Positions 1,458 through 63,363 of a stretch of 64,000 nucleotides of DNA are shown in pieces; the stretch's first letter is position 1, and each line of letters begins with the position of its first letter. The translations under genes and the position numbers were made by a program. The notes under the pieces are model-generated. The model worked only from the letters and a program-made list of their open reading frames with translations, was not told the origin of the DNA and did not search any database. Source of the DNA: Clostridia bacterium (GTDB taxonomy: Bacteria > Bacillota > Clostridia > Christensenellales > CAG-1252); assembly GCA_017444385.1 (NCBI GenBank), contig JAFSWQ010000008.1, positions 5,004 to 69,003 on the forward strand, given 5' to 3'.

Positions 1458-1691
1458 GGAAGAGATGTTTCGACTTCGCTCAACATGACGAATAAAAAAC
1501 CTCGCGAAGCGAGGCTCGAGCAAACGCAAAACGTTTGCGAGAAAGAGGAATAGGCAAGCAAAAACGAAATCATCGTTAGATGGTGAGTAAAAGCGCAGCC
1601 TATGACGAGTCGAAGGATCCCCTAACCAAGCGTAATTGCTTATATGAGATTCCAAAGCGGAAGAGATGTTTCGACTTCGCTCAACATGACG
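1458..1691 (+). repeat. repeat cluster: A - T1 - A
   Basis: A unit GGAAGAGATGTTTCGACTTCGCTCAACATGACG at 1458-1490 and 1659-1691. T1 module (CCTCGCGAAGCGAGGCTCGAGCAAACG...GTCGAAGGATCCCCTAA) at 1500-1625. Confidence 0.9.
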
Positions 1692-1757
1692 AATAAATAT
1701 AAACCGCTAGTTGCAAACCGCCTACCTCTTAACTCGTTAGTATTTTCGTATAAAATC

Positions 1758-1784
1758 AATATGCGACCTCGTCGGTCGCATATT
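1758..1784 (+). terminator. hairpin downstream of tig and its repeats (weak terminator candidate)
   Basis: ATATGCGACC-TCGTC-GGTCGCATAT 10-bp stem with a poor T-tract. Confidence 0.3.
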
Positions 1785-1833
1785 GTGGCTTAATGCCGCG
1801 AATTATAAAAAATAATCGTATAGGGCGTTCGTT

Positions 1834-1862
1834 TTGCGATTTTCCGTCCTATAATATAGAAT
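1834..1862 (+). promoter_or_regulatory. candidate sigma-A promoter of clpP
   Basis: TTGCGA (1834-1839), 17-nt spacer, TAGAAT (1857-1862), about 25 nt before the clpP ATG. No CtsR box seen. Confidence 0.3.
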
Positions 1863-1886
1863 ATACCTTTTTAATAAGGAGAATTT

Positions 1887-2480
1887 ATGGAAAAAGAAAA
1901 AATGTCTTTTATACCTTACGTTTACGAAGCGAACGGCGTCAATAAAGGCGACTTGTTTTCGAGAATGCTCGACGATAGGATCATCTTTTTGACCGGCGTA
2001 GTAGACAGCGATATGGCTGAACTCGTCATCGCGCAACTATTGTATCTTGAAAGCAAAGATCCCAAAAAGGACGTTTTCCTTTATATCAACAGTCCCGGCG
2101 GCTCGGTAAGCGACGGAATGGCAATTCACGACACTATGCAATATATCAAATGCGACGTGCAAACCATTTGCGTTGGCGAAGCGGCTTCCATGGGCGCGTT
2201 TCTACTTGCTTCGGGCGCGAAAGGCAAACGCTATTGCTTGAAAAACAGCGAAGTTATGATACACCAAGTTTTGAGCGGCTATTCGGGGCAGGCGACCGAC
2301 CTTGAGATCCACACCCGCCACACCTTGCGTATCAAAGAAAGAATGAACAAGCTTCTTTCCGAGTACACCGGTCAACCCTATGAAAAGGTTTGCTTGGACA
2401 CCGAAAGAGACTATTTTATGAACGCCGAAGAAGCGCTCGAATACGGCATTATCGACAAGGTTTTCGAACACAGAGAATAA
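1887..2480 (+). CDS. clpP: ATP-dependent Clp protease proteolytic subunit
   Basis: ORF 1887..2480 with an AAGGAG RBS upstream. Catalytic Ser context [14 protein letters not shown] and His context VMIHQ. Confidence 0.95.
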
Positions 2481-2483
2481 TTT

Positions 2484-3713
2484 ATGGTAGAGAAAGATTT
2501 CAGTTGTTCTTTTTGCGGTAGACCCGAGTCCGTCGCGGGGCAATTAGTCACCGGGAAAAGTAAAAATATCTATATTTGTAGGAATTGCGCCGAGCAAGTC
2601 ATCTCGAGATTAAGGGAATATGACGAAGAACGTATCGGCGTAAACGAGGGAATAAAACTCTTAACGCCTCGTCAAATCAAAAAGAAGTTGGACGAGTATA
2701 TCATCGGTCAGGATATGGCGAAGAAGATCATATCGGTAGCCGTGTATAACCATTATAAGAGGATCCTCAATAATAACGATCCCGACGACGTGGTTTTGGA
2801 AAAGAGTAATATCCTTATGCTCGGACCTACCGGCTCGGGTAAGACCTTGCTCGCAAAGACTCTCGCGGGGATATTGAACGTTCCTTTCGCTGTCGCGGAC
2901 GCGACCACCTTGACCGAGGCGGGCTACGTAGGCGAAGACGTCGAGAATATTTTGCTTAAACTCATTCAAAACGCCGACTTCGACATAGAGAGAGCGGAAA
3001 AAGGTATTATCTATATCGACGAGATCGATAAGATAGCCAAACGCGGCGAGAACGTTTCCATCACCCGCGACGTAAGCGGCGAGGGCGTTCAACAAGCCTT
3101 ATTGAAAATAATCGAAAGCACCACGGCGGACGTTCCCCCGAAAGGCGGAAGAAAACACCCCGAACAAGAGTGCATTCAAATAGACACCACTAATATATTG
3201 TTTATATTCGGCGGCGCGTTCGTAGGGCTTGAAAAGATCATCTCGCAAAGAAAGTTGGAAGGCAATATCGGCTTCGGCGCGTTCGTTGAAAGCGAGGAAA
3301 ACGCCGCGTATTCCCAGCTTATTGCGGAAATGCAACCCGACGACCTTATCAAATTCGGTCTTATCCCCGAGTTCGTCGGCCGCGTGCCCGTCGTAGTTGG
3401 CTTGGATAATTTGAACGAAGAGACGCTTATCCATATTTTGACCGAGCCTAAAAACGCCCTCGTCAAACAGTACGTCAAGTCGTTCAAGATTGACGGCGTA
3501 GAACTTGAATTTACCGAGGACGCCTTAAAAGCGGTCGCTCAAAAAGCCATAGAATTAAAAACGGGCGCGAGAGGATTGAGGAATATTTTAGAGAAGACCC
3601 TTCTCGAAATCAACTTCGATATTCCCGATATGCCCAACGTCGAAAAGGTAATAATCACGAAAGAAGTCATTGAGGGAAAGGAAAAACCCATATTGAGTTA
3701 TCAAAATGAGTAA
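2484..3713 (+). CDS. clpX: ATP-dependent Clp protease ATP-binding subunit ClpX
   Basis: N-terminal C4 zinc ribbon (CSFCG...CRNC), Walker A GPTGSGKT, Walker [10 protein letters not shown]. Confidence 0.95.
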
Positions 3714-3766
3714 TCGAGAAAACGAACGTTAGTTTTCTAATTTTTTGAAGGAATTATTATTAAAAA

Positions 3767-3979
3767 GCACGTATCGAATTGCGGAAACCCGAGCGAAGCG
3801 AGGCTCGAGCAAACGCATAACGTTTGCGAGAAAGAGGAATAGGCAAGCAATAACGAAACCACCGCAGATGGTGAGTAAAAGCGAAGCCTATGACGAGTCG
3901 AAGGATCCCTTAACGCGAAGCATCAAGTATTAATAAAAGTATATGCGGAAGAGATGTTTCGACTTCGCTCAACATGACG
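3767..3979 (+). repeat. repeat cluster: T1 - A
   Basis: T1 at 3767-3922, with a degenerate left end and the tail CCCTTAACGCGAAGCA. A unit at 3947-3979. Confidence 0.9.
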
Positions 3980-4065
3980 AGTCAATATGCCTAATTTGAC
4001 AAGGGAAATTAATCGCAGTTTCAACGAAGAAATTGTTTGATAGCATTACTAATTGGGAAGGAAAA

Positions 4066-6333: not shown

Positions 6334-6447
6334 CGTTTCGACTTAATATACCTAAAAGTTGCCTGAATCGAATTCGGCGAAACGCGATTAAAAGCGTCAA
6401 TCGTAATCATTATAATTGCATCAAACCGCCAGTAGCGAAAAGAAAAG

Positions 6448-6533
6448 TACGTCATACTGAGCCTGTCGAAGTATCCCCTAACGCGAAGCAGAAGCGACAA
6501 GGAAGAGATGTTTCGACTTCGCTCAACATGACG
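6448..6533 (+). repeat. short REPIN-like doublet: S - A
   Basis: S unit GTACGTCATACTGAGCCTGTCGAAGTATCCCCTAACGCGAAGCA at 6448-6490. The A unit at 6501-6533 is its imperfect inverted repeat. Confidence 0.9.
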
Positions 6534-6637
6534 AAATAATAAAGTGCGTCTTTGTAAATAACCGTTGTAGAATAACACGCAAAATAATTAGTACAAGTGC
6601 GCATATCTATTATATTACAAACGTTTTGAGGTAAACC

Positions 6638-7506: not shown

Positions 7507-8139
7507 TTATTGAGGGAAGAGCGGAAGGTCGAAAAAGCCTTCGCAAACTTCTTGCTGGAATTCTTGGCAAGGCGGGATATAGCAATATCCGTAAGAAGGG
7601 ACGAGAAGTTCCACTTCGGTCACGACCTTGACGATTACCGTCAAACAAATCGTAATAGAGAAAGTCGCATCCGAAACGTAAGAGCCTACCGTGCTAACCG
7701 CGTTCACGACCGCTTCGATATCGGCGGGAATGACCGATGCTTGCGGAATATGTAGAATGAGATCTCTTGAAACCGTAAAGGACGAAACGCCCGTCGCTGT
7801 AGTGCCGTTTGCGTCGGTGAAAACTACGGACAAAGGGACTGAAACGTCGAATTGAACTCTCGAACAACCGGGTTTGTCGGGAATGGGGGTTATAACGAGG
7901 TTGGATATTTCGCCTTTAGACGACGAGCTTATCGCGCTTTGATAGGTAAATGGTTGAGTTACGTCCTCGGGAACGGTGGACGTTAGGGTGATTTGAGTAT
8001 TTGCGAGGGTTTCTTGTCTGATACAAGCGTCGAAAACTTTCTTGACTTGAATACAAACTTTCTCGCACAATCCCGTAGTGGGATTGCCGTTTATAGTTCC
8101 GGGCATTCTGTCCGGTCTGACGTTATTGGAAAAAGCCAT
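7507..8139 (-). CDS. hypothetical protein (beta-rich, Cys-containing; possible sporulation-expressed structural protein)
   Basis: 210-aa ORF with a strong AGGAGG RBS 6 nt before the ATG. A CATATACTA mother-cell-type -10 lies just upstream. I recognise no catalytic motif, so the function is not assigned. Confidence 0.55.
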   Translation of the reverse strand: MAFSNNVRPDRMPGTINGNPTTGLCEKVCIQVKKVFDACIRQETLANTQITLTSTVPEDVTQPFTYQSAISSSSKGEISNLVITPIPDKPGCSRVQFDVSVPLSVVFTDANGTTATGVSSFTVSRDLILHIPQASVIPADIEAVVNAVSTVGSYVSDATFSITICLTVIVKVVTEVELLVPSYGYCYIPPCQEFQQEVCEGFFDLPLFPQ

Positions 8140-8155
8140 AATAATCCTCCTGTTT

Positions 8156-8183
8156 TAGTATATGTTAGAAGGATTGAGAAAGT
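8156..8183 (-). promoter_or_regulatory. candidate mother-cell (sigma-K/sigma-E type) promoter for the 7507..8139 gene
   Basis: The minus strand reads AC - 17 nt - CATATACTA, matching the AC-N16/17-CATAnnnTA pattern, about 20 nt upstream of the ATG. Confidence 0.3.
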
Positions 8184-8216
8184 GAAAGAAAAAGCGTTTG
8201 GTAGACTTAATAGTTA

Positions 8217-8778
8217 TTCCTTTACGAAAACCTTTTGGGTTTTCTCGATTGCTCACCTCGTTCGCGTAAAAATATCAGTACGTAATTCCGACCAACTTCG
8301 AGAAATTACAAATAATAGCACGTCATCTTTAACAGCAAAACCCGAGCGAAGCGAGGCTCGAGCAAACGCTTAACGTTTGCGAGAAAGAGGAATAGGCAAG
8401 CAACAACGAAACCATCGTAGATGGTGAGTAAAAGCGAAGCCTATGACGAGTCGAAGGATCCCCTTAAAAGAGGTAACTATCTTATAAAACTATCTTAAAT
8501 CGGAAGAGATGTTTCGACTACGCTACGCTTCGCTCAACATGACGAGTAAATTATATTAGTACCGTCATAGTGAGAAGGAATAACCCGAGCGAAGCGAGGC
8601 TCGAGCAAACGCAAAACGTTTGCGAGAAAGAGGAATAGGCAAGCAACAACGAAACCATCGTAGATGGTGAGTAAAAGCGAAGCCTATGACGAGTCGAGGG
8701 ATCCCCTAACGCGAAGCAGTGATAATCTTTCATATCGTTCAAATCCGAAGAGACGTTTCGACTACGCTCAACATGACG
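8217..8778 (+). repeat. repeat cluster: T2 fragment(-), degenerate S, then tandem [T1 - A][T1 - A]
   Basis: T2 fragment 8217-8266 (reverse orientation). Degenerate S 8278-8309. T1 8318-8466. A 8502-8544 (with a 9-nt internal duplication). T1 8559-8718. A 8746-8778. Confidence 0.9.
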
Positions 8779-8876
8779 AAAAAACATAAACCTAACTTAC
8801 GATAATGGACAAAATATTAGATTATGCCTAAGCTCAAAAGCGATCAAGGTTTTGACCGCTCAAAAATCCTCGCAGA

Positions 8877-9554
8877 TTACAGTAGCGTAAGCGTAAATTT
8901 GGTCAAGTCGCAAGAGGTGAGGATATAAGGAATATCGTCGATGACGACTTCTTTTTTGTGCGGGCTTTGAAATCCGTGTACGTGCCCGTAGACCACTTTA
9001 TATACGTTATATTCTTTAATTATCTCGGTAAAATCCGAGGATTTGAAATTGTTAAAAGGGGGATAGTGCGTCATCACTATCATTTTTTTGTCGGGGTAGC
9101 GGCGGACGGCGTCGTCGAGAGTTAGCCTCAAACGTAGTTTTTCCCTCTCGAAAATCTTTACGTTTTCCGCGTCGTTTTCTTCGGGAAAATCCCAAAGACG
9201 AGTCCCGCAAACGACGTAATCTTCAACGAGCAAAGAGTCGTTTTGGATGGCTTTGAAGGTAGGGGGAAGGGCGGCTTTGACTTTCGAGATACCCTGCCAC
9301 CAATAATCGTGGTTGCCGCGAATGATAATTTTAGTGCCTTTAAGCGAGTCGAATTCTTTAAGATCTTCCATCGCTTCGGGAATGGTCATCGCCCAAGAGA
9401 GATCGCCGCACAAAAGAACGGTATCGCCGTCTTTGACTTTGGCGATCCAGTCCTCTTTTATCTTATCGACGTAGTTGTCCCATTGACTACCGAAGACGTT
9501 CATGGGTTTGTCGCCTCGGGTAGATAGGTGCAAATCGGATATGGCGTAGATCAT
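8877..9554 (-). CDS. metallophosphoesterase (calcineurin-like phosphohydrolase)
   Basis: Motifs SDLHLS, CGDLSWA, RGNHDYWW, THYPP and YGHVHG, in canonical order. Confidence 0.85.
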   Translation of the reverse strand: MIYAISDLHLSTRGDKPMNVFGSQWDNYVDKIKEDWIAKVKDGDTVLLCGDLSWAMTIPEAMEDLKEFDSLKGTKIIIRGNHDYWWQGISKVKAALPPTFKAIQNDSLLVEDYVVCGTRLWDFPEENDAENVKIFEREKLRLRLTLDDAVRRYPDKKMIVMTHYPPFNNFKSSDFTEIIKEYNVYKVVYGHVHGFQSPHKKEVVIDDIPYILTSCDLTKFTLTLL

Positions 9555-19097: not shown

Positions 19098-19193
19098 GGT
19101 AGAGACGTTTCGACAGGCTCAACTCGTCACGACTTTCGCTTTTTATTCGTTGAGAAAAATTCTCAACTTCATTTTTGCTCGGTCGTTCCTCTT
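19098..19193 (-). repeat. T2 module, partial
   Basis: GGTAGAGACGTTTCGACAGGCTCAACTCGTCACGACTTTCGC...GTTGAGAAAAATTCTCAAC...GCTCGGTCGTTCCTCTT. Matches the first ~95 nt of the full T2 copy at 27323-27462. Confidence 0.85.
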
Positions 19194-19293
19194 GCGAAGT
19201 AAGTTATTATACGAGCTTCAGCGAGTAAGATAATTTGTAAAGTCAAGTGATCAATTTTAGCCATACTAGACCTTTCTATACTATTTTCTTTAT

Positions 19294-19647
19294 GAGCGAA
19301 GCGAATTCCGGAAGTTTGCACCCTTCCGCCATAGGCGGGAGCAAAGGGGGATGGACCGCTTCCGAAGCAGTCTCAAACTGCGACGAAGTGGTGGGGGTTT
19401 TAAGAGAGAGTATCACGTTATTAAGAATCGTAAAATACGAAAGCATTAGGATTTTTAGAGACTAATGTCTTGTACGGAATAAACGTTTTGATATTTTTTT
19501 TGGTAAATTCGGTAATACCGAGTGCTAATTCAAAACCCCCGACCTTCCGTCGAGCTAAAGCTCTTTGGGAACGTCCCCTCCCCCTTTGCCCGCTTGAATC
19601 CCAGATTCTTCACTAAAGGGTGCAAACTTCCGGACTCGCCGAAGCTC
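19294..19647 (+). repeat. L element copy 1 (~354 nt, long imperfect fold-back; possible structured RNA or MITE)
   Basis: About 90% identical to 26898-27249. Arms pair: CCGGAAGTTTGCACCC with GGGTGCAAACTTCCGG, GCAAAGGGGGA with TCCCCCTTTGC, GGGGGTTTT with AAAACCCCC. Local hairpins occur in each arm. Confidence 0.85.
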
Positions 19648-19703: not shown

Positions 19704-19963
19704 GGTAGAGATGTTTCGACTACGCTCAACATGACGAAAAAATAAGAGTACGTCATCTTTAACAGCAAGCCCGAGCGAAGCGAGGCTCGAGCAAACGCTT
19801 AACGTTTGCGAGAAAGAGGAATAGGCAAGCAACAACGAAACCATTGTAGATGGTGAGTAAAAGCGAAGCCTATGACGAGTCGAGGGATCCCCTAACGCGA
19901 AGCAGCGGTAATCATTTAAGTATTTTTATCGGTAGTGACGTTTCGACTTCGCTCAATATGACG
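19704..19963 (+). repeat. repeat cluster: A - T1 - A
   Basis: A 19704-19736, T1 19748-19904, A 19931-19963. Confidence 0.9.
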
Positions 19964-20028
19964 ATAAAAATAACACTCTTAATAAAAAGTCCGTCATACT
20001 CTCGCCTTGACGAAAATAATATTCAATT

Positions 20029-22049: not shown

Positions 22050-22100
22050 AAAGAGGCGTTTATTCTTCGTTCGTCGAAGAGTAACGGGTTAATCCAATAA

Positions 22101-22300
22101 GGGATATTTCGACTTCGTTTCACTTCGCTCAATATGACGATATCTAAACAGTACGTCATACTAAACTAGGAGATCCGAGCGAAGCGAGTATCGAACAAAC
22201 GCAAAGCGGTTGTGAGAAAGAGGAATAGGCAAGCAAAAACGAAATCATTGTAAGATGATAAGTTATAGCGAAGCCTATGACGAGTCGAAGGATCCCCTAA
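22101..22300 (+). repeat. repeat cluster: A - T1
   Basis: A 22101-22139 (variant with an internal duplication and an ATAT/ATAT stem). T1 22151-22300 (diverged copy). Confidence 0.85.
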
Positions 22301-22393
22301 ATAATAATACCTAAAATTATAAAAATTTATAAACAAATTCCGAGCAAAATCTCAAGAAATGCTCTAATTATAATTTAAACTAATGAGGTTGTT

Positions 22394-24774: not shown

Positions 24775-24828
24775 AGTAAATTAACTGCGATTATTCGCAT
24801 TGATTTAATTTGGCTCAAAAATTTTACT

Positions 24829-25092
24829 CGTCATGTTGAGCTTGTCGAAACATCTCTTCCGATTGAGATAATCAAATAAGCAAACACTGCTTCGCGTTAG
24901 GGGATTCCTCGACGATGCTCGGAATGACGGTACTAATATAATTTACTCGTCATGTTGAGCTTGTCGAAACATCTCTTCCAATTTGGAACCTCATATAAGA
25001 GATTACGATTGGTTAGGGGATCCCTCGACGTTGCTCGGGATGACGTACTGATATTTTCTCGTCATGATGAGCGAAGTCGAAACATCTCTTCC
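24829..25092 (-). repeat. repeat cluster in reverse orientation: A - S - A - S - A
   Basis: A 24829-24860, S 24888-24933, A 24948-24979, S 25013-25048, A 25060-25092. All are reverse complements of the forms seen elsewhere. Confidence 0.9.
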
Positions 25093-27462: not shown

Positions 27463-27473
27463 TTTTTATAATA

Positions 27474-35300: not shown

Positions 35301-38300
35301 CCGATAGCGGGAATTTTACGGCGTGTATGACGGTGGTAAGAGAGTATTTTAAGCGGAAAGGGGACGAAAAACGCGCGCTAGGAGTGAAATCCTACCTCTC
35401 CCCCGATTATTCGTTTTTATTCGATAACGATAAACGTTTATTGAATATCGCATACTACGTCGACGAGAATAGGGCGGAAGGCGTTTACGATATTTTCGAG
35501 AGCGAAGCGCGCCTTGCGTACTACGTCGCAATTTCGTTAGGGATTCCGAGCGAGGCGTGGTTTAACCTCGGTAGAAGTTTTATAAAGGACTACGGAAACA
35601 CGCGTTTGAGTTGGGGCGGCTCGCTTTTCGAGTACCTTATGCCCTCGATTTTCCTCAAACCGCCATTTTATTCTATGCAATATAAGTCCGAGCGAAACGC
35701 TTTTTATATCCATAAAAAGAAAACGGGGCTTTGGGGCGCTTCGGAAAGTTGTTTCAATGCGTTCGACGCCGAAACTCGCTATAAATACGAACTTCACGGT
35801 AACGGAAAATTGTCGATGAAGTACGACCTTATTGAAACAGTTTATTCGCCGTATTCTGCGTGTCTTTGCCTGCCTTACTCAAGGGGCGAAGTGGGGGAAG
35901 TTTTAAGGGAATATATCTCTTTGGGCGGATTTACCGAACGAGGTTTAGTCGAGAGTTGGGACGGTAAAAAAATCGACGTTTATATGACTCACCATCAAGG
36001 AATGATACTCGCCGCTATTACGAATTACCTGTGCGATGACGCGGTGAGCGAACTCTTTTTCGCAGCCGACGAGATGAGGGCGTTGAGGCTAATTAACGCC
36101 GAGCCGTACGAAAGAGCGTCGGGTTATTTGAAGAATTACAAGCGTAAAGAATACGCCGAAAAATCCCTTCCCAAAGTGTACGGCGATAACCTTTCCCCGT
36201 ACGCAACTTTGCTTACCGACGGCGCGTTCTCTTCGTTTAACACCGCCGACGGGGAAAGCCGAATATCTCTAAATAACCTGCTTTTATCCCCCGTTTACGA
36301 TAACCCGAATAGGTTGAGCGGGCGTTCCCTCGTCTTTGAAAAAGGCGGTGTGAAGTACGACCCGTTATCAAGTTGTTCGGTGATTTTGGGCGGGGATTCC
36401 TTCGAGAGAATAGGCGAAGAAGCCAAAGAAAAAGTCAAACTTATACCCGAAACGAGAGGGGAAATAAGACGTATAAGGATAAAGGGGAAGTCGGACGAGC
36501 GAATAGACCTTTCTTATTACTTCGACGTTTGCTTGCAAACCCCCGACGAAACCCATTCCCATCGTGGGTTTTACGACCTTTTCGTGACGAGCAAAGTAAG
36601 CGAGAATTATGCGGTTTATAGGCGGAAAAACCTCGATAACGTCGCGGTCATAGTAAAGGTTATTGGGCTTGACGATCTCGCGATAAATACGAATAAGCAA
36701 AACGTATTAGAGCGCAATAATACCTTTTTAGAAAGTCGGCTAACCGTTTCTAACGACAAATACCCCTCGTCGGGGGACGTCGTTTTCCCGTGTTTCGCGT
36801 GTAAGGGAGGCGTGGATATAAAGGAAAACGAAGAGAAAGACGTTTATATTTTGACTGTCTTTGCCGAAACTATCGACGAGTGCGAGCGAATAGCCGAGAG
36901 GTACGACGAAGAACGCTTAAAGTATTCGTTCGATCTGTTCGACGTGGATAAAAGCAATATAATTAAGGAAACCATAGCCGAAAACTTCTCGAAAGAGGGC
37001 GCGGAATTATTATATAAAATATTCAAAACGCCGTTTAGCGAGGACTACTTGATAGACGATAAATTCGACGGAAAATACAGAATACTTTATTCGCGTAAGA
37101 AGTCTTCTTCGACTATAGAAGAAGCGTTGACTGCGGTCGCCTCGTTGAAATATCTATCTTTCCCCGCCGTATTGCACACTGTCGAACCCATTATAAAAGG
37201 ATTGCCTGTCGAGATCTCTAACGAGATAAGCGGATCGTTTTATTATTCTTTCGGCGAAGAGGTGGAAAGGCGGGTTAAAATCCCCGTACGCAAACTACCA
37301 AAACAGCGCGGTAAACGCGAAGGGTTGTTTAGCGGCGAGGGGTACGTACGAGAGGGCGCTTACGAAGTGGAATCCAAGGGCGAAAACACGCTACGCCCCT
37401 ATTCCAACGTGATCTGCGATAAGAGCGTAGGTGCGATCGTCACCGAAAACGGCGGCGGGTTTTCCTTCGCGGATAACTCAAGAGGAAGGAAGTTTACCGA
37501 GTGGTATAACGACGTATTTCTCGACACGCCTTCCGAGGACGTTTTGATTTATATAAACGGTCGTTTTTATCGCTTGAATTCTTCCTCGTCGGTTTGTACT
37601 CACTACGCCGAAAAGACCGAATTCGTTGCGACTATCGAGGGAATAAGGTTCGCGCTTTCGATCTATTGCGAAAACGGAAGGATAGTAAAATGCGTAAAAG
37701 CGTTGGGCAAAAACGCTCGTTTTTGCGTTATATTCGGCTACCGTTTTTCTCTTGATTGGAAGGAATCCCGCGCAGTGTATTGCAAGGAAAAGGATTTGGG
37801 GCGAATGGTTTTATTCAATAAAGAAAGTAAAATGCAAGCGGTTTTGACTCTCACCGACGGCGTGCCTTTCGCCGGGGAAAGTAACCTTTTGAAAGCCTTA
37901 AAAGGCGAGCCTTTCGGGTTTAGCGGGGGATATTTCGGGCTATACGTTTTCGGCTTGTCTTGCGAGAATAAAATATCGAGTTACGTTTGCGGTTTGTACA
38001 AAAAGGAATTCAAAAGCGGTAAAAAGAAAACGAACGAAACCTATCTGAAAACCAACGACGCATACCTTGATTTGCTGTTCAACGATTGGCTTTATAAGCA
38101 GTTTTACGATTGTCGCTTTCTCTCTCGCGCGTCATTCTATCAATGCGGCGGCGGTTACGGGTTTCGCGATCAGTTACAAGACTCTCTCGCCCTTTTATAT
38201 TCGAGCGAGGAAACCGTCCTAAATCATATCCTCGACTGTTGTTCTCATCAGTACGTCGAGGGGGACGTAATGCACTGGTGGCACCCGCCGCGCACGGGGG

Positions 38301-39490
38301 TTAGGTCGCTAAACGCCGACGATAGATTTTTCCTTTGTTACGTCACCTCTAAATATATCGACAAAACGGGGGACGCGGGAATCCTCAACCGCAAAACCCC
38401 GTTTATAACGAGCGAACCGCTAAAAGAGGGCGAGATATCCCGCTACGAAATACCCACCCTAAAAAGAAGTTCGGAAAGCGTCAGAGAACACCTCAAACGC
38501 GCTCTTCTTTCGGGGCTTGACTTCGGCGAACACGACCTACTCAAAGTCCACGGCGGCGACTGGAACGACGGACTTGATAGGATAGGCGTTATGGGTAGAG
38601 GGGAAAGCGTATGGTTATCCGAATTCGCCTATCTCACCGTCGTAAAGTGCCTTGATTATTTCGACGGGGAAACCAAAAACCTCCTTCTTAACGCTTTAAG
38701 CCGCTTAAAAAAGGGGATAAACAAGGCGTTTTTCGGGGATAGGTTCATAGCCTATTACGACGACGAGGGCAATCCCGTGGGGCATAAGGACGGCGAAGAA
38801 TGTTCGTTATACCTTCTAACGCAGGCGTTCGCGCCTCTTTCTTCGGCGGTGGAAGAGGAAGTTTGCTTTGCGGCGATAAATACGGCGAAGAAACTCTACG
38901 ACGCGGAAAAACGCATATTGAAATTGTTTTATCCGCCTTTCAAAGAGAGTAGTAAATACGGATATATCGGCGATTATCCCTCGGGCGTCAGGGAAAACGG
39001 CGGGCAGTACACGCACGCCGCGGTATGGTACGCGCGCGCTCTTTTCGATTTGGGGTTAAACGACGAAGGTTACGAGATAATATCCTCGATAAATCCCCTT
39101 AAACGCTGTTCGGACGAGAGGGAAACCGAACGCTACAAAGGAGAGCCTTACGTTTTACCGGCGGACGTTTATTCGACGGGCGAATGCGGTTGGACTTGGT
39201 ACACGGGTAGCGCGGCTTGGTACTACGTCACGGTCGTTGAGAGTATGCTAGGCGTTACTTTCGACCACGGTAAAATCAAGTTCAGACCTCGACTTCCGTC
39301 ATCTATGGACGAAGCTTTTCTTCGCTTGAAACTCAAAGATACCGTGCATTTAATTACGATAAAAAAATCGATAGTAAATAAGCTCACCGTGAACGGCGTA
39401 GAGTATAAAAAAGAGTATTTTCAGCCTGAAAAACGAGAGGGCGAGGTCAATATAGTGGTGGAATATAAAGAAAAAGAAAAGAATATTTGA
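32378..39490 (+). CDS. giant multidomain glucan synthase/phosphorylase-like protein (GT84-type cyclic beta-1,2-glucan synthase N-terminal/middle part plus a GH94-type phosphorylase C-terminus)
   Basis: Single 2370-aa ORF with several TM helices (aa 1-25, ~340-380, ~700-860). GT-A-like ILDEDNE and FRWQRGD motifs. C-terminal HGGDWNDGLD and ENGGQYTHAAVWY motifs, recalled from GH94 cellobiose/chitobiose phosphorylases. Confidence 0.7.
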   Translation: MIYAIIVLSTATVVFGICAVIFKNAYPVVFENFERLVEGIKTVERGGRGLNLSKYRRILKNAQKSISAKDRKDTYSFEKWIVDNYFVVYEALKRVNLRSLPHVQGVPRVYLIAEFFVANEMGKAENFISFVKDLERTVSLDFSEIVALPTALKIAEAVAVVTAAEYSLRFDKEKRELSGKESLNDKTPSYVSFYAEKYEVEDSFLSFVREAKESFVSLQIYLERKTSVAVENIKNVYKVSVLRTYETLCSSNSQLKNTDNYDDLSRPTQIEYLRRISEISNALNVPESAVCESAIFLSRSLKEDVSRVLFDKKLLKNYIEKGKIKREKNRKKPVYIALVFILAGVIGLSPLTLSRTLLDIVFSIVLFICSIKPMELLLKRLFSLAKKPPVFAMGYKKVPENAETVVVVPIYVSGEEGLKSGYEKIRALSFNTSDERVQYCLLVDLPKSREEKTTLDETLLTYAKTLFEKDDRVIVYVRKKSEEDGVFLGKERKRGALLDFFESEISGNTDKFLYCSKKLTGAKFAVILDEDNEILPDTILNSINTFLHPYNADYDLLSYGAKINKYSITTIYSKRYSEDGSVDCYPCYNDFYADVFGEAVFCGKGIIKISSFYRKVLDAFPEKRILSHDIIEGATAKCGSLRQSIFEDAPQNFKADVTRTFRWQRGDVLLLPYLSRRVIDANNEKRSNNISGIYKLIILVNGLEPIRNTLLLALAFLACFAKAYHLLGFLALSTSLPFLIDGLRSLKFGKVRLRYILRDLGRLFSHAFERFFFLPFYAVEGARVFFSTIFGSAFSKKSLINWTPYKNTQKKNGLLAYVRLFAPSKVVMSILGVLSFDPYFLAFAAVYVLYAFIVYKGGTIGIKHDEREQTTLKEVGKATFDFFAKTLVNDLPRDNIQISPKTKQTFMTSPTDVGFYLMSLVCGVELGYISAKIADERIEKTLTRLDSLEKYRGHLYNWYDVETLKPLPPKRISSADSGNFTACMTVVREYFKRKGDEKRALGVKSYLSPDYSFLFDNDKRLLNIAYYVDENRAEGVYDIFESEARLAYYVAISLGIPSEAWFNLGRSFIKDYGNTRLSWGGSLFEYLMPSIFLKPPFYSMQYKSERNAFYIHKKKTGLWGASESCFNAFDAETRYKYELHGNGKLSMKYDLIETVYSPYSACLCLPYSRGEVGEVLREYISLGGFTERGLVESWDGKKIDVYMTHHQGMILAAITNYLCDDAVSELFFAADEMRALRLINAEPYERASGYLKNYKRKEYAEKSLPKVYGDNLSPYATLLTDGAFSSFNTADGESRISLNNLLLSPVYDNPNRLSGRSLVFEKGGVKYDPLSSCSVILGGDSFERIGEEAKEKVKLIPETRGEIRRIRIKGKSDERIDLSYYFDVCLQTPDETHSHRGFYDLFVTSKVSENYAVYRRKNLDNVAVIVKVIGLDDLAINTNKQNVLERNNTFLESRLTVSNDKYPSSGDVVFPCFACKGGVDIKENEEKDVYILTVFAETIDECERIAERYDEERLKYSFDLFDVDKSNIIKETIAENFSKEGAELLYKIFKTPFSEDYLIDDKFDGKYRILYSRKKSSSTIEEALTAVASLKYLSFPAVLHTVEPIIKGLPVEISNEISGSFYYSFGEEVERRVKIPVRKLPKQRGKREGLFSGEGYVREGAYEVESKGENTLRPYSNVICDKSVGAIVTENGGGFSFADNSRGRKFTEWYNDVFLDTPSEDVLIYINGRFYRLNSSSSVCTHYAEKTEFVATIEGIRFALSIYCENGRIVKCVKALGKNARFCVIFGYRFSLDWKESRAVYCKEKDLGRMVLFNKESKMQAVLTLTDGVPFAGESNLLKALKGEPFGFSGGYFGLYVFGLSCENKISSYVCGLYKKEFKSGKKKTNETYLKTNDAYLDLLFNDWLYKQFYDCRFLSRASFYQCGGGYGFRDQLQDSLALLYSSEETVLNHILDCCSHQYVEGDVMHWWHPPRTGVRSLNADDRFFLCYVTSKYIDKTGDAGILNRKTPFITSEPLKEGEISRYEIPTLKRSSESVREHLKRALLSGLDFGEHDLLKVHGGDWNDGLDRIGVMGRGESVWLSEFAYLTVVKCLDYFDGETKNLLLNALSRLKKGINKAFFGDRFIAYYDDEGNPVGHKDGEECSLYLLTQAFAPLSSAVEEEVCFAAINTAKKLYDAEKRILKLFYPPFKESSKYGYIGDYPSGVRENGGQYTHAAVWYARALFDLGLNDEGYEIISSINPLKRCSDERETERYKGEPYVLPADVYSTGECGWTWYTGSAAWYYVTVVESMLGVTFDHGKIKFRPRLPSSMDEAFLRLKLKDTVHLITIKKSIVNKLTVNGVEYKKEYFQPEKREGEVNIVVEYKEKEKNI

Positions 39491-41650: not shown

Positions 41651-42121
41651 ATGTCCAAAGTAAAATGCGGTCAATGCGATAAAAAATATCCGTCCGGATA
41701 TAACTTCTGCCCTCATTGCGGGAATCCTCTCGCGGGGGAAGAAGCGGTCGAATACTTAAAAGAGAGCGATTTTCCTTTTTCGACGGGCTTCGAGATCATG
41801 ATGGTTCGCGGAAATATTCCCTGGATAGGTTCGCTACATAATTGCAAGGATCCTAACGTAAGGTTGCCCGAAGAATACGATTGCAGAAGAGTTAAGGGCA
41901 TAGCGCACGACGCTTTCAGTAAAACCAACGTCAAGAGCGTTTATATACCCGTTACGTATAAGTTTATCGGACAGGACGCTTTTTTCTCTTGTAAAAAATT
42001 GGATACGATAGTTTACGGCGGCAGCAAAAGCCAATGGAAGCGCCTTTTTAAAAAGGACGGCTGGTGCAACGGCTCGTCTTTCGTGGTCGTTTGTAAAGAC
42101 GGTATTATCCGTTATTGTTAG
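41651..42121 (+). CDS. zinc-ribbon plus BspA-type leucine-rich-repeat (LRR_5-like) protein
   Basis: N-terminal KCGQCDKK...CPHCGNPL zinc ribbon. IAHDAFSKTNVKSVYIP...IGQDAFFSCKKLDTIVY LRR pattern. Paralog of the next gene. Confidence 0.7.
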   Translation: MSKVKCGQCDKKYPSGYNFCPHCGNPLAGEEAVEYLKESDFPFSTGFEIMMVRGNIPWIGSLHNCKDPNVRLPEEYDCRRVKGIAHDAFSKTNVKSVYIPVTYKFIGQDAFFSCKKLDTIVYGGSKSQWKRLFKKDGWCNGSSFVVVCKDGIIRYC

Positions 42122-42132: not shown

Positions 42133-42603
42133 ATGCCTTTAATAAAATGCGTAGATTGTAAAAAGAAAATATCTTCGTCCGCCGAGAAGTGCCCCTTTTG
42201 CGGTTGTCCCGTTTCGGTCGTAAAAGATAATACCCCCTCGGATAAATTGAAGAAATCTCTCGAACCTTCAAGAGGGCTTCAATTCGCTTTGATAAAAGGT
42301 AGATATTTCGTAACGGGGTTAGGCTCGTGCGAAGATACCGACGTGGTCATTCCTTCCGAACACGACTGTAAAAAGGTCGTCGCAATCGCGGATAACGCGT
42401 TTAGATTCGCGGAGATAACGAGCGTTTATATCCCCAAATCTATCGTAAGGATCGGCTATTGCGCGTTCGAGGGTTGCCACGAATTGAAGAAGATAATTTA
42501 CGAAGGCAGTAAAGCGAGTTGGGGCTGTATCCGTCGCGACGAGTATTGGTGCTATAACTCTTCTTTCGACCTCGTTTGCAAAAACGCTACCTTGCACTTC
42601 TAA
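42133..42603 (+). CDS. zinc-ribbon plus BspA-type leucine-rich-repeat (LRR_5-like) protein
   Basis: KCVDCKKK...CPFCGCPV zinc ribbon. IADNAFRFAEITSVYIP...IGYCAFEGCHELKKIIY. Same 156-aa length and architecture as 41651..42121. Confidence 0.7.
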   Translation: MPLIKCVDCKKKISSSAEKCPFCGCPVSVVKDNTPSDKLKKSLEPSRGLQFALIKGRYFVTGLGSCEDTDVVIPSEHDCKKVVAIADNAFRFAEITSVYIPKSIVRIGYCAFEGCHELKKIIYEGSKASWGCIRRDEYWCYNSSFDLVCKNATLHF

Positions 42604-45022: not shown

Positions 45023-45047
45023 AGTCCCTATATTAGGGGCTTTTTTT
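45023..45047 (+). terminator. intrinsic terminator after pyrH
   Basis: AGTCCCTA-TAT-TAGGGGCT stem (one U-G pair) followed by a T7 run. Confidence 0.7.
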
Positions 45048-45053
45048 ATAGAG

Positions 45054-45240
45054 AATAACGGCGTATTTAAAACGAATCACACCTTATTTAAAACGAATCA
45101 CGCCGTATTTAAAAGAATAACTGCGTATTTAAAACGAATCACGACTTGTTTAATAGATTCACAACTTGTTTGAAAAGTATCACGACATATTTATAAAGAA
45201 TCACGCCGTATTTAAAAAATCACGTCGTATTTATAAAAAA
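45054..45240 (+). repeat. nine tandem direct repeats of ~21 bp (iteron-like array)
   Basis: Units start at 45054, 45075, 45096, 45116, 45137, 45157, 45178, 45199 and 45218. Consensus AATCACGNCGTATTTAAAACG, containing the ACGnCGT mini-palindrome. No spacers. Confidence 0.9.
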
Positions 45241-45281: not shown

Positions 45282-45375
45282 CGTCATCCTGAGCTTGTCG
45301 AAGGATCTCAATCCGACTTAAAAGAATTGCGCTTCGGGTTAGGGAATGTTTCGACTACGCTCAACGTGACGGTAC
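45282..45375. repeat. inverted S / hybrid S-A doublet
   Basis: S(+) CGTCATCCTGAGCTTGTCGAAGGATC at 45282-45307. The reverse-oriented unit at 45329-45375 combines the A-type stem (GTT/AAC) with the S-type tail CCCTAACCCGAAGCGC. Confidence 0.85.
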
Positions 45376-50632: not shown

Positions 50633-52129
50633 ATGGACGATTTTTTAATACGATTCAACGAAGCCACGAATAACAAATACTCCTATTTGCGTATTAAGCG
50701 AGTGGATATCTTCAAGAGCGAGCGCAAGGCTTGTATCTATTTTTACGTTCCCGAAAAGATATACGAAAGAGGTTTCGATAACACCGTCCAAAAAGAACTC
50801 GGAAAGTTTTGCCAAAAGATCGCGCGTAATATGAAGTGCGAGTTTTACTTCGAAAGGTTGCTCGTTTCCGAGAGTATTTGTAAGGAAAACGTGGAAGAGT
50901 TTTGCCTCTCGCGTTATCCTTTTTTGACTTCCTCTATAAACGCCGACTGTATTAAGGTAGAGATTCGGGACGAGATCAAGGTTTTCATCACGATAGAAGA
51001 GGACGTTTTCAACGTGATAGAGCAGTCGGATTTCGCCGAGAAACTCGTTTACTATCTTCAAGAAACCTATATTTTACCCACTTCGATAGAGTTTAACGTG
51101 GTTAAAAAGGGCGTTATCAAAATCGAAACCGAAGAACTCGGCGTCAAAACCAAAAAGACCGTGCCCATAAAAGGATTCGAGTATCTTTGCGGCGTGAACG
51201 CCAAGACGATTAACTTCCCCGTATTCATCGACTCGGTTAAAAGAGCGGCGGATAACGCCACAATTTGCGGCGTAGTCGACGAGTATCATTTCAAGGAAAA
51301 CGAGAAGCCCGAAGACGAGAATAAATTTTACAGGAAGTATTCCTATCGTTTGGTTTTGAACGACCTTACCGAAAAAATGACGGTTTATTTTTCCACTAAC
51401 GACGAAAAATGTCCTTTGAAAGACGTAACGGTAGGGAAGGAAATTTTGGCGAGAGGCAAGATACTTTATAGCGTCATTAAAGGCGCGTTCGTTATGTACG
51501 CGAAGAGCGTTTACACCTGTAAATTGGACGTTGAGAAGATAAAGGAAGCGATAAAGCCTCTACCCCCGCCCGAAACCATGGAGAAAGAACCGGAGCCTTA
51601 CGTCGGCGGTGACTTTTTGCTTGAACAACGCCTTGAAGATCTCGATAAAGAGTACGAACCCAAAGAATTCGACGCGGTGTTTTTCGCTTATAATTTAGTG
51701 AACCCGAAATCGTTCAGCCCGTGGGAAATCACCATGCTTTCTTTTGAAAAGGGTAAATGCAAAGAAGTTTATAATACGTTCGTGAGAACTTCGAATATCG
51801 AAGCGATAGATCCCGAATTCAAAGCTAAGGTTAACGTCGCTAAACGCCTATCAGACCTTGTCGGCGATATATTATGCTTCACGAAAGGCAAGCAGTTTAT
51901 ATGTCAAAATCCCTCGTTCGTCGTCCCCGAAATAGCCGCTTTATGCAAGCCGCAAAGATACGAATTCGCCCCCGAGGCTTTCGACGCGGATAAAATAGGT
52001 ATGAAGGTCAGCAAAGGCGAACAGGATTTACGCAAAAACCTCAAACTTCACGGAATAGCCTTGAAGAGCGAAAGAACCTACGACCTCGCTATCGCAATGG
52101 CAAAACTCTATTTGAAAGTATTGAAGTAA
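50633..52129 (+). CDS. PolC N-terminal-like protein (N-domains plus OB-like plus degenerate exonuclease-like domain; no PHP or polymerase core)
   Basis: 498-aa ORF in the slot where Firmicutes usually carry polC (after rseP, before rimP-nusA). IKRVDIFKSERKACIYFYVP resembles the PolC N-domain. ATICGVVDEYHF...MTVYFS is OB-like. ERTYDLAIAMAKLYLKVLK resembles the PolC ExoIII motif HRAIYDTEATAYLLLKML. The ExoI acidic residues are absent (FDAVFFAYNLVNP). Comparison from memory only. Confidence 0.45.
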   Translation: MDDFLIRFNEATNNKYSYLRIKRVDIFKSERKACIYFYVPEKIYERGFDNTVQKELGKFCQKIARNMKCEFYFERLLVSESICKENVEEFCLSRYPFLTSSINADCIKVEIRDEIKVFITIEEDVFNVIEQSDFAEKLVYYLQETYILPTSIEFNVVKKGVIKIETEELGVKTKKTVPIKGFEYLCGVNAKTINFPVFIDSVKRAADNATICGVVDEYHFKENEKPEDENKFYRKYSYRLVLNDLTEKMTVYFSTNDEKCPLKDVTVGKEILARGKILYSVIKGAFVMYAKSVYTCKLDVEKIKEAIKPLPPPETMEKEPEPYVGGDFLLEQRLEDLDKEYEPKEFDAVFFAYNLVNPKSFSPWEITMLSFEKGKCKEVYNTFVRTSNIEAIDPEFKAKVNVAKRLSDLVGDILCFTKGKQFICQNPSFVVPEIAALCKPQRYEFAPEAFDADKIGMKVSKGEQDLRKNLKLHGIALKSERTYDLAIAMAKLYLKVLK

Positions 52130-61044: not shown

Positions 61045-61106
61045 ATTAAAATAATACTTGCAAAATTACTTATATTATTATATAATTTTAATTAAGGACT
61101 ACGAAA

Positions 61107-62165
61107 ATGAACGCTTTAACTTTACGCGAATTGGTGAATAAATGCAACGTGGACGCCCTCTTGTTGACGTCTTATTCGAATTGCTCTTATTACGCGAAGT
61201 ATATGAACCCCGAGTGTTCAATACTTGCGACCAAGAACGAAGTCTGGTATTTTACCGACGATAGATATTTAGAAGAAGCGCGCAAGATAGTCCCGGCGGA
61301 CTATAAACTCGTTTCTTGTAGAAATACGGACTATAAAAAGATATACGAAACCGTCGATTTCGGTTCTATCAAGACGATAGGTATCGACGACGTAAAGTTC
61401 GCGGATTATTTAGCGATGCGCAATACGTTTTACGGCGTTGACATTTTTGACTTTCAAGCCGCGATATCCGCGCCTCGCGCGGTAAAGACCGAAGAAGAGA
61501 TCGCTTTGATCGCTAAAGCCGCTCATTGTAACGACGTAGCGTTTGAAAATCTTCTCGGGCAAGTTAAAGAAGGAATGACCGAGTTGGAACTCGCTTACCT
61601 ACTTCAATACGAGTATATAAAAGCGGGCGGCGAAGGTATAGCGTTCGACACGATAAGCGTATTCGGCGAGCATACCGCATATCCTCACGGTCACCCCGGT
61701 CATACGAAGTTGAAATACGGCGATTGCGTTACGCTTGACTTCGGCACAAAGTACGGCGGATACTGCTCGGATATAACGAGGAATTTCTGTTTCGGGAAGC
61801 CCGATCCCGAATACGTAAGATGCTATCAAGCGGTTTTGGAAGCAAACAAAGCGGGTATCGACGCGGTTGAAGTCGGCAAGGCTTGCAAAGACGTCGACAA
61901 GGTCGCTCGCGACGTATTGAAAAAGTACGATCTTGACAAATACTTCACCCACTCGCTAGGTCACGGCGTAGGCATAGATATCCACGAATTTCCTTATCTA
62001 TCGCCCAAAAGCAACGACGTATTCAAGGAAAACCAAGTGTACACGGTTGAACCCGGCATATACATAAACGGCAAATTCGGCATACGCATTGAGGATTTAT
62101 TGACCGTCAAAAACGGTCGTTCCAATCTGCTCAGCCGTTGTAATAAAGAATTGATAATTTTATAG
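61107..62165 (+). CDS. pepP: M24-family Xaa-Pro aminopeptidase
   Basis: [33 protein letters not shown] and IRIEDL metal-ligand blocks. Upstream of efp, as in Bacillus. Confidence 0.9.
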
Positions 62166-62175
62166 GAGGCTATAT

Positions 62176-62742
62176 ATGGGATTTATTTTAGCAGGTGATT
62201 TTAGAAAAGGCGTCACTTTTGAATTTGAAGGAAACGTAATGGTTATAGTCGATTTCCAACACGTTAAACCCGGCAAGGGCGCGGCTTTCGTCCGTACCAA
62301 AATCAAAAACGTTATGACGGGTAGCGTACTTGAAAAGACTTTCAACCCCACCGATAAATTTGAGACCGCAATGATCGAGCGTAAACAAATGCAATACAGC
62401 TACACGGACGGCGAATTCTACTACTTTATGGACAACGAGACCTACGACATCATTCCTTTGAATTACGAACAATGTCAAGACGCTCTTAACTTCATCGTAG
62501 AACAAAGCAACGTCACCGTTTCTTTCTACAAGGGAAAAGCCTTCTTGGTAGAGCCCGAAACCTTCGTTACCTTGCTCATCACCGTTTGCGAACCCGCCGT
62601 CAGAGGCAACACCGCCACCCCCGGCACCAAGCCCGCGACTTTGGAAACCGGATTCAAGATCCAAGTTCCTATGTTCGTTAACGAAGGCGAGAGAATCCGC
62701 GTAGATACCCGTACCGGTACCTATTTGGAGCGCGCCGACTAA
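62176..62742 (+). CDS. efp: translation elongation factor P
   Basis: [17 protein letters not shown] loop. 188 aa. Confidence 0.97.
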
Positions 62743-62886
62743 TAGTTAAGGCTACTCAGCGGGTTGTTCGGATTAACTATGGAAAGCGGTTTGCGCCGCT
62801 TCCCGACAACCATTATTTCGAACCAATCCACATAATGATAATGCGTTTATACGACTTATGATCCCCGTAGTCGTACGAGTAGATAA

Positions 62887-62918
62887 AGAGGCTACGAAAT
62901 TTTGTCAGCCTCTTTTTT
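62887..62918 (+). terminator. intrinsic terminator downstream of efp
   Basis: AGAGGCT - 13-nt loop - AGCCTCT followed by a T6 run. Confidence 0.55.
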
Positions 62919-62989
62919 CGTAAACAATAGAATTAGCGAGCGTTTGAAACGAATTCGCAAAAATGAACTTGATTATTACGTGGATTTGA

Positions 62990-63363
62990 GTACGTCATCC
63001 TGAGCCTGTCGAAGGATCCCCTAACGCGAAGCAACGTTTACAAGGAAGAGATGTTTCGACTACTCTCAACATGACGAAAATAGGTTTATAGTACGTCATC
63101 CCGAGCATCGTCGAGGGATCCCCTATCAAGAGGTAACTATTACTTTCTATGCTTTATTCGGAAGAGATGTTTCGACTACGCTCAACATGACGAATAAATA
63201 GAAGAAAGTCATACTTAACAACAAAAATCCGAGCGAAGCGAGGCTCGAGTAAACGCACAGTGTTTGCGAGAAAGAGGAATAGACAAGCAAAAACTAAATC
63301 ATCGTGAGATGATAAGTAAAAGCGAAGTCTATGACGAGTCGAGGGATCCCCTAACGCGAAGCA
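62990..63363 (+). repeat. repeat cluster: S - A - S - A - T1
   Basis: S 62990-63033, A 63044-63076, S 63091-63125, A 63170-63202, T1 63218-63363 (copy carrying compensatory stem changes). Confidence 0.9.

Follow-up and report, generated by a model that had tools for sequence, protein, structure and literature searches.

Repeat arrays in a Clostridia housekeeping region

The window analyzed here is a 64,000-nucleotide stretch of the genome of an uncultured, spore-forming Clostridia bacterium (assembly GCA_017444385.1, contig JAFSWQ010000008.1, positions 5,004 to 69,003), and its intergenic DNA carries dense arrays of a small hairpin repeat that resembles the repetitive extragenic palindromic (REP) sequences of other bacteria. 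Pfam matches on the called genes confirm the presence of tig, clpP, clpX, lon, the mur/fts cluster, spoIIGA, sigE, sigG, and efp. The arrays are assembled from two kinds of hairpin unit (A and S), two kinds of longer module (T1 and T2), and a near-palindromic element (L). Units of the A type were collected with an nhmmer profile (E < 0.01) and by scanning with a 33-nucleotide (nt) A consensus at no more than 3 mismatches, using the shuffled window as a control; the consensus gave 11 matches, against 0 expected from the shuffles. The profile identified 22 A units, 19 of them written on the plus strand and 3 on the minus strand, with three of the 22 being partial, and profile searching also identified 7 to 8 full copies of S. 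There are ten T1 modules, every copy on the plus strand, two L elements, and three occurrences of T2 (one full copy and two partial pieces). A first-pass annotation of this DNA had given the same numbers for T1, T2, and L, whereas its counts of about 20 A units and 8 to 9 S units required adjustment.

Complete hairpins of 25 to 26 nt, detected with a fuzzy scan, number 25 in the 64 kb, against 0 to 1 in mononucleotide shuffles. Together, the repeats occupy 4,045 bp, or 6.3% of the window (close to the roughly 7% estimated at first) and 45% of the 9,049 bp that lie between its genes. They were said to fill 13 gaps and to avoid all genes; 11 repeat-bearing gaps were counted, and the overlap with called coding sequences is indeed 0 bp. 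Self-comparison shows about 7 kb of the window to be repeated, part of which is protein paralogy. The same arrays are present at 99.9 to 100% identity in contigs of at least seven independent assemblies and so are not assembly artifacts; together with the shuffle controls, this establishes the units as real. The flanks outside the window add two more doublets.

Repeat features of the window (coordinates, strand, description)
1458-1492, minus: A unit, tig-clpP gap; canonical CGTC-headed hairpin reads on the minus strand (consensus scan, hairpin scan, profile)
1497-1637, plus: T1 module lacking the 5' S half; three-hairpin core, then S 3' half and tail
1659-1693, minus: A unit; followed (position 1698) by an extra 128-bp S-A doublet in L126 and L127
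3767-3925, plus: T1 module, clpX-lon gap (T1 alignment)
3947-3981, minus: A unit (consensus scan, profile)
6448-6493, plus: S unit, lon-engB gap; stem ACT/AGT, tail CCCTAACGCGAAGCA
6501-6535, minus: A unit, in a heads-outward doublet with S 6448-6493
8213-8301, plus: partial T2 piece, gap between two minus-strand genes (repeat family D11)
8320-8478, plus: T1 module (T1 alignment)
8502-8546, minus: A unit with a small internal duplication, CTACGCTACGCTTCGC
8563-8721, plus: T1 module; this array holds an extra 336-bp T2-T1-A block in L125
8747-8780, minus: A unit (consensus scan, profile)
19098-19193, plus: degenerate A unit and first half of T2, ftsW-murA gap (repeat families D17 and D20, profile)
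19292-19640, plus: L element, 349 nt, near-palindromic, with 18-bp terminal inverted repeats (CCGGAAGTTTGCACCCTT)
19704-19738, minus: A unit (consensus scan, profile)
19749-19907, plus: T1 module (T1 alignment)
19931-19965, minus: A unit (hairpin scan, profile)
22099-22141, minus: degenerate A unit, ftsQ-ftsA gap (profile)
22153-22312, plus: T1 module, the most diverged copy, with compensatory stem changes
24827-25092, minus: A-S-A-S-A, ftsZ-spoIIGA gap, the sole inverted array (repeat family D7, hairpin scan, profile); A units at 24827-24860, 24946-24979, and 25058-25092, S units at 24885-24929 and 25012-25047
26709-26867, plus: T1 module, sigE-sigG gap (T1 alignment)
26896-27243, plus: L element, second copy (pairwise comparison with the first)
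27323-27470, plus: T2 module, the sole full copy, opening with a degenerate A-like unit (D11, D17, D20)
27476-27580, plus: S-A doublet; S 27476-27519 on the plus strand, A 27547-27580 with its hairpin on the minus strand
27596-27754, plus: T1 module (T1 alignment)
27778-27865, minus: 2.4 tandem A units with a 37-nt period (hairpin scan, profile)
28727-29012, plus: partial A (28727-28746), T1 (28798-28957), and A (28980-29012), divergent gap adjoining minus-strand sigG
45282-45371, plus: diverged doublet, pyrH-frr gap, with its two tails exchanged compared with normal S and A units
45283-45307, plus: left hairpin of the pyrH-frr doublet, S-like stem CCT/AGG
45345-45370, minus: right hairpin of the pyrH-frr doublet, A-like stem GTT/AAC
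62991-63194, plus: two successive S-A doublets, efp-polA gap; S 62991-63036, A 63044-63078, S 63092-63135, A 63160-63194
63207-63366, plus: T1 module with compensatory changes in two stems

Anatomy of the hairpin unit and its doublets

Both A, read as its reverse complement, and S fit a single hairpin core of about 26 nt, CGTC-AT-NNN-GAGC-(2-3 nt)-GTCGA-N'N'N'-AT-C. This shared core bears out the earlier description of A as the imperfect inverted repeat of S, and the two are better regarded as sub-types of one hairpin that differ in stem and tail than as separate families. The A sub-type has the stem GTT/AAC, the loop GAA or GTA, and the tail TCTTCC, whereas the S sub-type uses the stems CCT/AGG, CCC/GGG, TCC/GGA, or ACT/AGT with loops of CT, TT, AAC, or ATC and ends in the tail listed above for the lon-engB copy. 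The variable triplets are perfectly complementary in 22 of the 25 window hairpins, with several different triplets in use. The base preceding GTCAT is C in 23 of the 24 hairpins that retain an intact GTC head, and the GTC-AT...AT-C frame is intact in 20 of 25, with the remaining five each carrying a substitution in one AT dinucleotide. The stem consists of five canonical pairs followed by GAGC-N2-3-GTCGA, a segment that probably forms tandem G-A pairs and a GC-clamped triloop.

The pairing of S with A and of T1 with A as REP-like inverted doublets holds throughout: in all of them, the CGTC heads point outward and the tails inward, with 31 to 48 nt between the hairpins. Doublets of one S and one A joined tail-to-tail measure 90 to 130 bp. 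The stems of S and A within a doublet always differ, and the doublet therefore consists of a pair of small hairpins, not of a single long, perfect palindrome, even though it folds as a long imperfect hairpin with a z score of about -3.3 on either strand. Doublets, half-units, and the T1, T2, and L modules are concatenated in changing order, in keeping with the comparison made at first to bacterial interspersed mosaic elements (BIMEs) and BOX elements, and a small internal duplication of the kind described is present within the A unit at 8502-8546.

The T1, T2, and L modules

T1 appears as an S-type unit split into a 5' half (CGTCAT-NNN...) and a 3' half (GTCGA-NNN-ATCCCC...) by a core of about 125 nt. 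The core consists of three hairpins and is almost invariant among the ten copies, whose flanks are variable. Three of its base pairs show compensatory changes, and mismatches read on the plus strand comprise 7 G-T wobbles and 4 broken pairs, whereas on the minus strand they are mostly breaks.

The two L copies differ at 41 positions over 354 aligned columns. The predicted fold of L is strong (-149.5 kcal/mol, z = -9.5); a conserved structured RNA was nonetheless rejected as its identity, as 17 of the 21 affected pairs are broken and none is compensated, a comparison of two copies that has little power. L behaves like a decaying palindrome of the miniature inverted-repeat transposable element (MITE) kind, as judged from this pattern of substitution. 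Its left flank carries a sequence like the hairpin core, ATGAGCGAAGCGAAT. No parent insertion sequence (IS) for L was found in the window, and L had no match in a plasmid collection; the T1-A combination had none in a phage collection. A 111-amino-acid (aa) open reading frame that spans L and T1 returned only itself in a protein search. When T1, T2, and L were compared by BLAST with about 200 loci from other genomes, only the hairpin core matched, and these modules would accordingly appear to be found only in this lineage.

Orientation, gain, and variation of the arrays

Ten of the 11 clusters share a common orientation, including those beside the minus-strand genes at 7507-9554 and 27880-28653, which indicates that the arrays are oriented by the chromosome strand and not by the direction of nearby transcription. 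The shared orientation is on the strand of positive GC skew, and nearly all of the plus strand in the window has such a skew.

The closest homologues of ClpX in a search of 5.8 billion proteins are only 77% identical, which makes this a sparsely sampled lineage of Clostridia. The two nearest relatives (L213 and L215) share the gene order of the window, and the hairpin scan found 0 hairpins in about 47 kb of their syntenic loci. The tig-clpP junction measures 22 to 37 bp in these relatives and 472 bp in the window; clpX and lon overlap by a few bases in the relatives and are separated by 352 bp here (3714-4065), and lon and engB likewise overlap there and are 304 bp apart here (6334-6637). The simplest reading of these alignments is that the repeats were gained in the window's lineage, the insertions having split overlapping genes so that new starts had to be used.

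Presence/absence differences between assemblies, which the first-pass annotation had proposed to look for, occur at two places. Two assemblies (L126 and L127) contain an additional complete 128-bp S-A doublet after position 1698, including 23 nt absent from the window, and a third (L125) has a further T2-T1-A block of 336 bp near 8.5 kb. Sequence around both sites is otherwise about 99.9 to 100% identical between assemblies. Copy number is thus still varying within the population. Both polymorphisms are bounded by direct A units, so either could be the product of insertion or of recombination between A units.

Distribution of the hairpin and other identities tested

A strict form of the core pattern was searched for in species-representative genomes and gave at least 120 matches; the figures in this section that concern other genomes apply among the matches listed. 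The core is present in Bacteroidota, Verrucomicrobiota, Chloroflexota, Planctomycetota, Acidobacteriota, candidate-phyla-radiation lineages, Alphaproteobacteria, and several metagenome-assembled genomes (MAGs) of Clostridia and Christensenellales, often as inverted pairs 45 to 60 bp apart. The stems are perfectly complementary in 132 of 151 strict matches, using more than 10 different triplets, and the loop triplet is GAA, GCA, GGA, or GTA (G-N-A) in 141 of them. DNA mini-hairpins of the d(GCGNAGC) type, with GNA triloops, are exceptionally stable, and the loops seen here are a hint, though not proof, of a role in single-stranded DNA. With a core spread across so many phyla, the motif itself is no novelty of this genome; the features peculiar to this lineage are its burst of copies and its T1, T2, and L modules.

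A scan of viral contigs for the A unit gave 0 matches. No Rfam family covers A, S, T1, T2, or L, either at the gathering score or at E ≤ 5, and RNase P alone passes the gathering score in the window. The best Rfam match to a repeat is AaHKsRNA41 (Aggregatibacter small RNA [sRNA] 41) at 21 bits against a cutoff of 97, with weak matches of 19 to 21 bits on both strands of 6390-6566. The weak match arises from the consensus of that family, in which two similar GCTGAGC...CGAAGCATC hairpins seem to stand as an inverted pair, and this "sRNA" may itself be the transcript of a broadly similar repeat doublet. No tRNA or tmRNA was found in the window. The units were also considered as intrinsic terminators or promoters and rejected as such, since no unit contains a plus-strand terminator-like match and promoter-like matches are at background. 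The exact hairpin strings were not found in the literature searched, which mostly leaves subscription journals outside its coverage.

Relation to known repeat systems

The first-pass annotation called the units REPIN-like, after the inverted REP doublets that are associated with REP-associated tyrosine transposases (RAYTs). The inverted REP-like doublets justify part of that label; the tag does not, being CGTC rather than the GTAG of RAYT-associated REPs and REPINs. Such a tag is characteristic of the CGTC-tagged REPs described by Di Nocera, De Gregorio & Rocco (2013, BMC Genomics 14:522, PMC3733652), which have a terminal CGTC or TGTC, A-T pairs at stem positions 1 and 2, and a short tail, lie in extragenic DNA mostly as inverted dimers, often heterodimers, and comprise four CGTC families with 8- to 9-bp stems and 4- to 5-nt loops, with the neisserial dRS3 being the CGTC-1 repeat. 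Its authors write that these repeats "apparently lack a dedicated transposase," note REPs in or near repair genes, and found CGTC units flanking a RAYT or IS200 gene in none of the species that they examined; hosts are named in the Proteobacteria, Chlorobi, Bacteroidetes, Spirochaetes, and Thermotogae, with Firmicutes not mentioned (PMC3733652).

The window units share with these repeats the 20- to 40-bp palindromic format, the unpaired CGTC tag, the A-T pairs at positions 1 and 2, the unpaired tail, the organization as inverted dimers or heterodimers, the extragenic location, and the lack of a flanking transposase. They differ in having five Watson-Crick pairs and the GAGC...GTCGA segment in place of an 8- to 9-bp stem and a 4- to 5-nt loop. 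On the features and geometry described, they fit as a variant within the CGTC-tagged REP superfamily and not as GTAG REPINs. The alternative raised at first, that the units match a described family with a known mobilizing enzyme, is therefore half borne out: the superfamily is described, and no dedicated transposase is reported for it.

The REPIN-RAYT system of Pseudomonas and Enterobacteria is also similar. Both have two inverted hairpins forming a nonautonomous doublet of about 100 bp, intergenic placement, strand bias, residence in genomes that are inherited vertically, and a proposed cognate gene that is single copy and bracketed by the same hairpins. They part in the tag, in that no Y1 transposase was found here, and in the gene that sits between hairpins elsewhere, which has the GIY-YIG fold. 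Neisserial intergenic mosaic elements (NIMEs; RS units flanked by dRS3), the BIMEs of enterobacteria, and the BOX elements of pneumococci are made of short hairpin units alternating with 50- to 150-bp modules in variable order and number, a plan that the mosaic arrays of the window resemble, whereas the sequences of T1, T2, and L have no match outside this lineage.

Search for a mobilizing enzyme

The earlier statement that no RAYT or other transposase is encoded in the window agrees with the absence of such matches in Pfam for the called genes and in NCBIfam for the unassigned open reading frames, and tblastn found no GIY-YIG match in the window. Candidates were sought beside the hairpins of other genomes. 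Among the matches listed, comprising 120 loci selected by hairpin, GIY-YIG is the only recurrent nuclease-type family in the neighborhood, and no Y1-like family recurs. A GIY-YIG protein of about 90 to 100 aa is encoded in 5 of the 120 loci, in 4 of them within 100 bp and with hairpins on both sides.

In the converse test, 80 metagenome loci were picked solely for encoding a GIY-YIG protein, and generic CGTC-type hairpins were counted around the gene. There are 68 hairpins within 150 bp of the gene (23.3 kb) against 12 beyond 1 kb (138 kb), a 33-fold enrichment (Poisson P of about 4e-77). Upstream, the plus-to-minus ratio of hairpin strands is 23:8, and downstream the minus-to-plus ratio is 29:8, so that the heads face outward around the gene; the median distances to the gene are 24 nt on the upstream side and 20 nt on the downstream side. 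Of the 80 loci, 37 have one or more hairpins in the correct orientation, and 16 have both. The base before the GTC head is T in 107 of 118 metagenome hairpins. The flanking hairpins occur in several versions, GAGC-GNA-GCGA, GAGC-GNA-GTCGA, and GACC-GAA-GGGAG, and as perfect palindromes, which presumably resemble the neisserial dRS3 (CGTC-1) repeat.

The hairpin-flanked proteins match PF01541, the UPF0213 structures 1zg2 (E = 4e-15) and 1ywl (E = 8e-10), and, more weakly, SLX1 (7cq2, E = 6e-5). They are thus like the small UPF0213/YhbQ GIY-YIG proteins and the structure-specific endonuclease SLX1 in family and structure matches, and the window encodes no protein of this kind. Between GIY-YIG proteins and hairpin loop and stem types, nearest neighbors agreed in 17 of 21 cases, against about 9 expected, a figure uncorrected for phylogeny. 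Two sets of identical GIY-YIG proteins each occur in a single conserved context across many samples, on which ground a multicopy IS was rejected as the nature of the GIY-YIG unit. The literature searched, whose coverage is incomplete, yielded no link between GIY-YIG proteins and REP-like repeats. A derivation of T1 or L from a GIY-YIG gene was rejected, as tblastn returned nothing below E = 0.2.

Several loci deserve separate mention. Some GIY-YIG loci carry hairpin variants that fall outside the strict definition; in L224, for example, the gene lies between the arms of a perfect inverted repeat of 37 bp that starts TGTCATTTCGAC (about 2885-2925 and 3380-3420). The unit has an IS-like outline, yet the identical gene is in one fixed context across several samples. 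A Sphingobacteriales MAG (L067) carries six degenerate plus-strand hairpin units upstream of its GIY-YIG gene (1259-1555), five of which form a head-to-tail tandem array with a 26- to 27-nt period (1424-1555). In hairpin-selected loci of three genomes (L019, L066, and L047), a cluster of open reading frames lies beside or overlaps the hairpins, and its members in L019 and L066 look like glycosylases of the MutY/EndoIII family.

Origin of the arrays

The arrays are probably best explained as a lineage-specific expansion of CGTC-tagged REP-type hairpins. Under this account, taken with its conjectural steps, the hairpins would function as structures in the single-stranded DNA that the replication fork exposes, as suggested by the covariation, the GNA loops, and the strand bias, and would be recognized by their shape together with the conserved loop and tag bases. 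An enzyme whose gene lies in another part of the genome would copy or move them in trans, and the arrays would then grow and shrink by recombination between units. The best candidate for that enzyme would be a small UPF0213/Slx1-like GIY-YIG nuclease, since genes of this type in other genomes have a hairpin on either side, in the way that REPs bracket a RAYT. That these nucleases are the missing cognate enzymes of CGTC- and TGTC-tagged REPs is a tentative proposal, drawn from those other genomes, and the odds are somewhat against it.

Several observations weigh against this account. The window and its flanks of about 17 kb contain no gene for a GIY-YIG protein, another nuclease, or a transposase, and the copy count covers that stretch of about 81 kb only. 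Both polymorphisms can be explained by A-A recombination without transposition. The single hairpin has a z score of about 0 under nearest-neighbor energy models, that is, no predicted stability, and its importance would rest on the covariation within units. GIY-YIG enzymes are hydrolytic nucleases, and no member is known to be a transposase; copying would therefore have to rely on the repair or replication machinery of the host. The GIY-YIG gene acts as a resident single-copy gene, as RAYTs do, which fits an ordinary resident gene as well, and its association with hairpins could mean that it targets them rather than moves them.

In a different account, the hairpins are landing pads: a free-standing, homing-endonuclease-like GIY-YIG gene or elements of the IS110 type would insert into existing hairpins or doublets, and the association would then say nothing about what multiplies the hairpins. 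Elements of the IS110 family and a filamentous phage of Neisseria target REP or dRS3 hairpins, the GIY-YIG genes occupy exactly the place of the doublet spacer, T1 resembles an insert of about 125 nt between the two halves of an S hairpin, and the left flank of L bears the core-like ATGAGCGAAGCGAAT. Against this, identical genes occupy one fixed context and not a range of doublets, and the proteins of about 90 to 100 aa match only the GIY-YIG catalytic domain in Pfam; this account is judged quite improbable. It is also unlikely that the same class of element is served by a Y1 HUH transposase (a RAYT or IS200/IS605-like enzyme) encoded elsewhere, which would recognize CGTC hairpins as single-stranded DNA as has been shown for GTAG REPs. 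The combination of hairpin, 5' tetranucleotide tag, inverted doublets, and strand bias is the architecture of RAYT and IS200/IS605 systems, according to the discussion in PMC3733652, but the species of Di Nocera et al. are described there as having no RAYT or IS200 gene flanked by CGTC units, and the 120 hairpin-selected loci listed show no recurrent Y1-like neighbor. An IS608 TnpA probe found nothing in any locus examined, a weak result in that the probe was an approximate sequence and RAYTs are divergent.

The units could instead be immobile at present and serve the host as RNA or DNA structures, such as mRNA 3'-end stabilizers, processing sites, insulators separating the genes of an operon, or protein-binding sites, with duplication and recombination as the sole source of spread and variation in the arrays. 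Roles of this sort are published for REPs (PMC3733652). Most units closely follow a co-directional gene, the T1 core is near-invariant with three compensatory pairs and a wobble pattern that favors the plus, mostly sense, strand, and the polymorphisms are compatible with unequal recombination. Yet no unit has a plus-strand terminator-like match, orientation is kept beside minus-strand genes, the relatives manage with junctions of 22 to 37 bp or with overlapping genes, and a core found across many phyla with free covariation of its stem calls for a mechanism of dispersal. A purely host-serving origin is accordingly given a low probability, and expansion of a mobile CGTC-tagged hairpin is preferred.

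CGTC-tagged REPs are widespread. The window captures a recent dense burst in a Firmicute, in which a repeat-free state in the nearest relatives and varying copy number offer a natural system in which to watch the process, and searches that began from the hairpin and from the gene both yield one specific, testable candidate enzyme. If the GIY-YIG proposal is correct, it would constitute a second partnership of the REPIN-RAYT type, built on a different nuclease fold and extending across many bacterial phyla, and the arrays of the window would be nonautonomous offspring of a GIY-YIG system in a Clostridia lineage. A large class of intergenic DNA in bacteria would then have an explanation, as would many spurious "hypothetical proteins" that are translations of hairpins, and a hairpin-specific nuclease of possible practical use would be gained. 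Should the proposal fail, the window would still record a clean repeat invasion that split the formerly overlapping clpX, lon, and engB.

Other features of the region

The pyrH-frr gap also holds about 9.4 tandem copies of a 21-nt unit (45042-45239; consensus TTTAAAAAGAATCACGACGTA, 75% matches), which end shortly before the S-A doublet of that gap, are unrelated to the hairpin family, and could be an iteron-like or protein-binding array. A 498-aa open reading frame between ispG and rimP (50633-52129, plus strand) is called as a gene in several assemblies and has no Pfam or NCBIfam family. Two tandem paralogous genes for 156-aa proteins (41651-42121 and 42133-42603), with zinc ribbon and weak BspA-type leucine-rich repeat matches, explain part of the self-similarity signal and stand outside the repeat family. 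A 2,370-aa protein with GH94 domains of the cellobiose or cyclic-glucan phosphorylase type is encoded at 32378-39490 on the plus strand, and directly upstream of its gene lies the class A RNase P RNA (31886-32200, plus strand, 245 bits).

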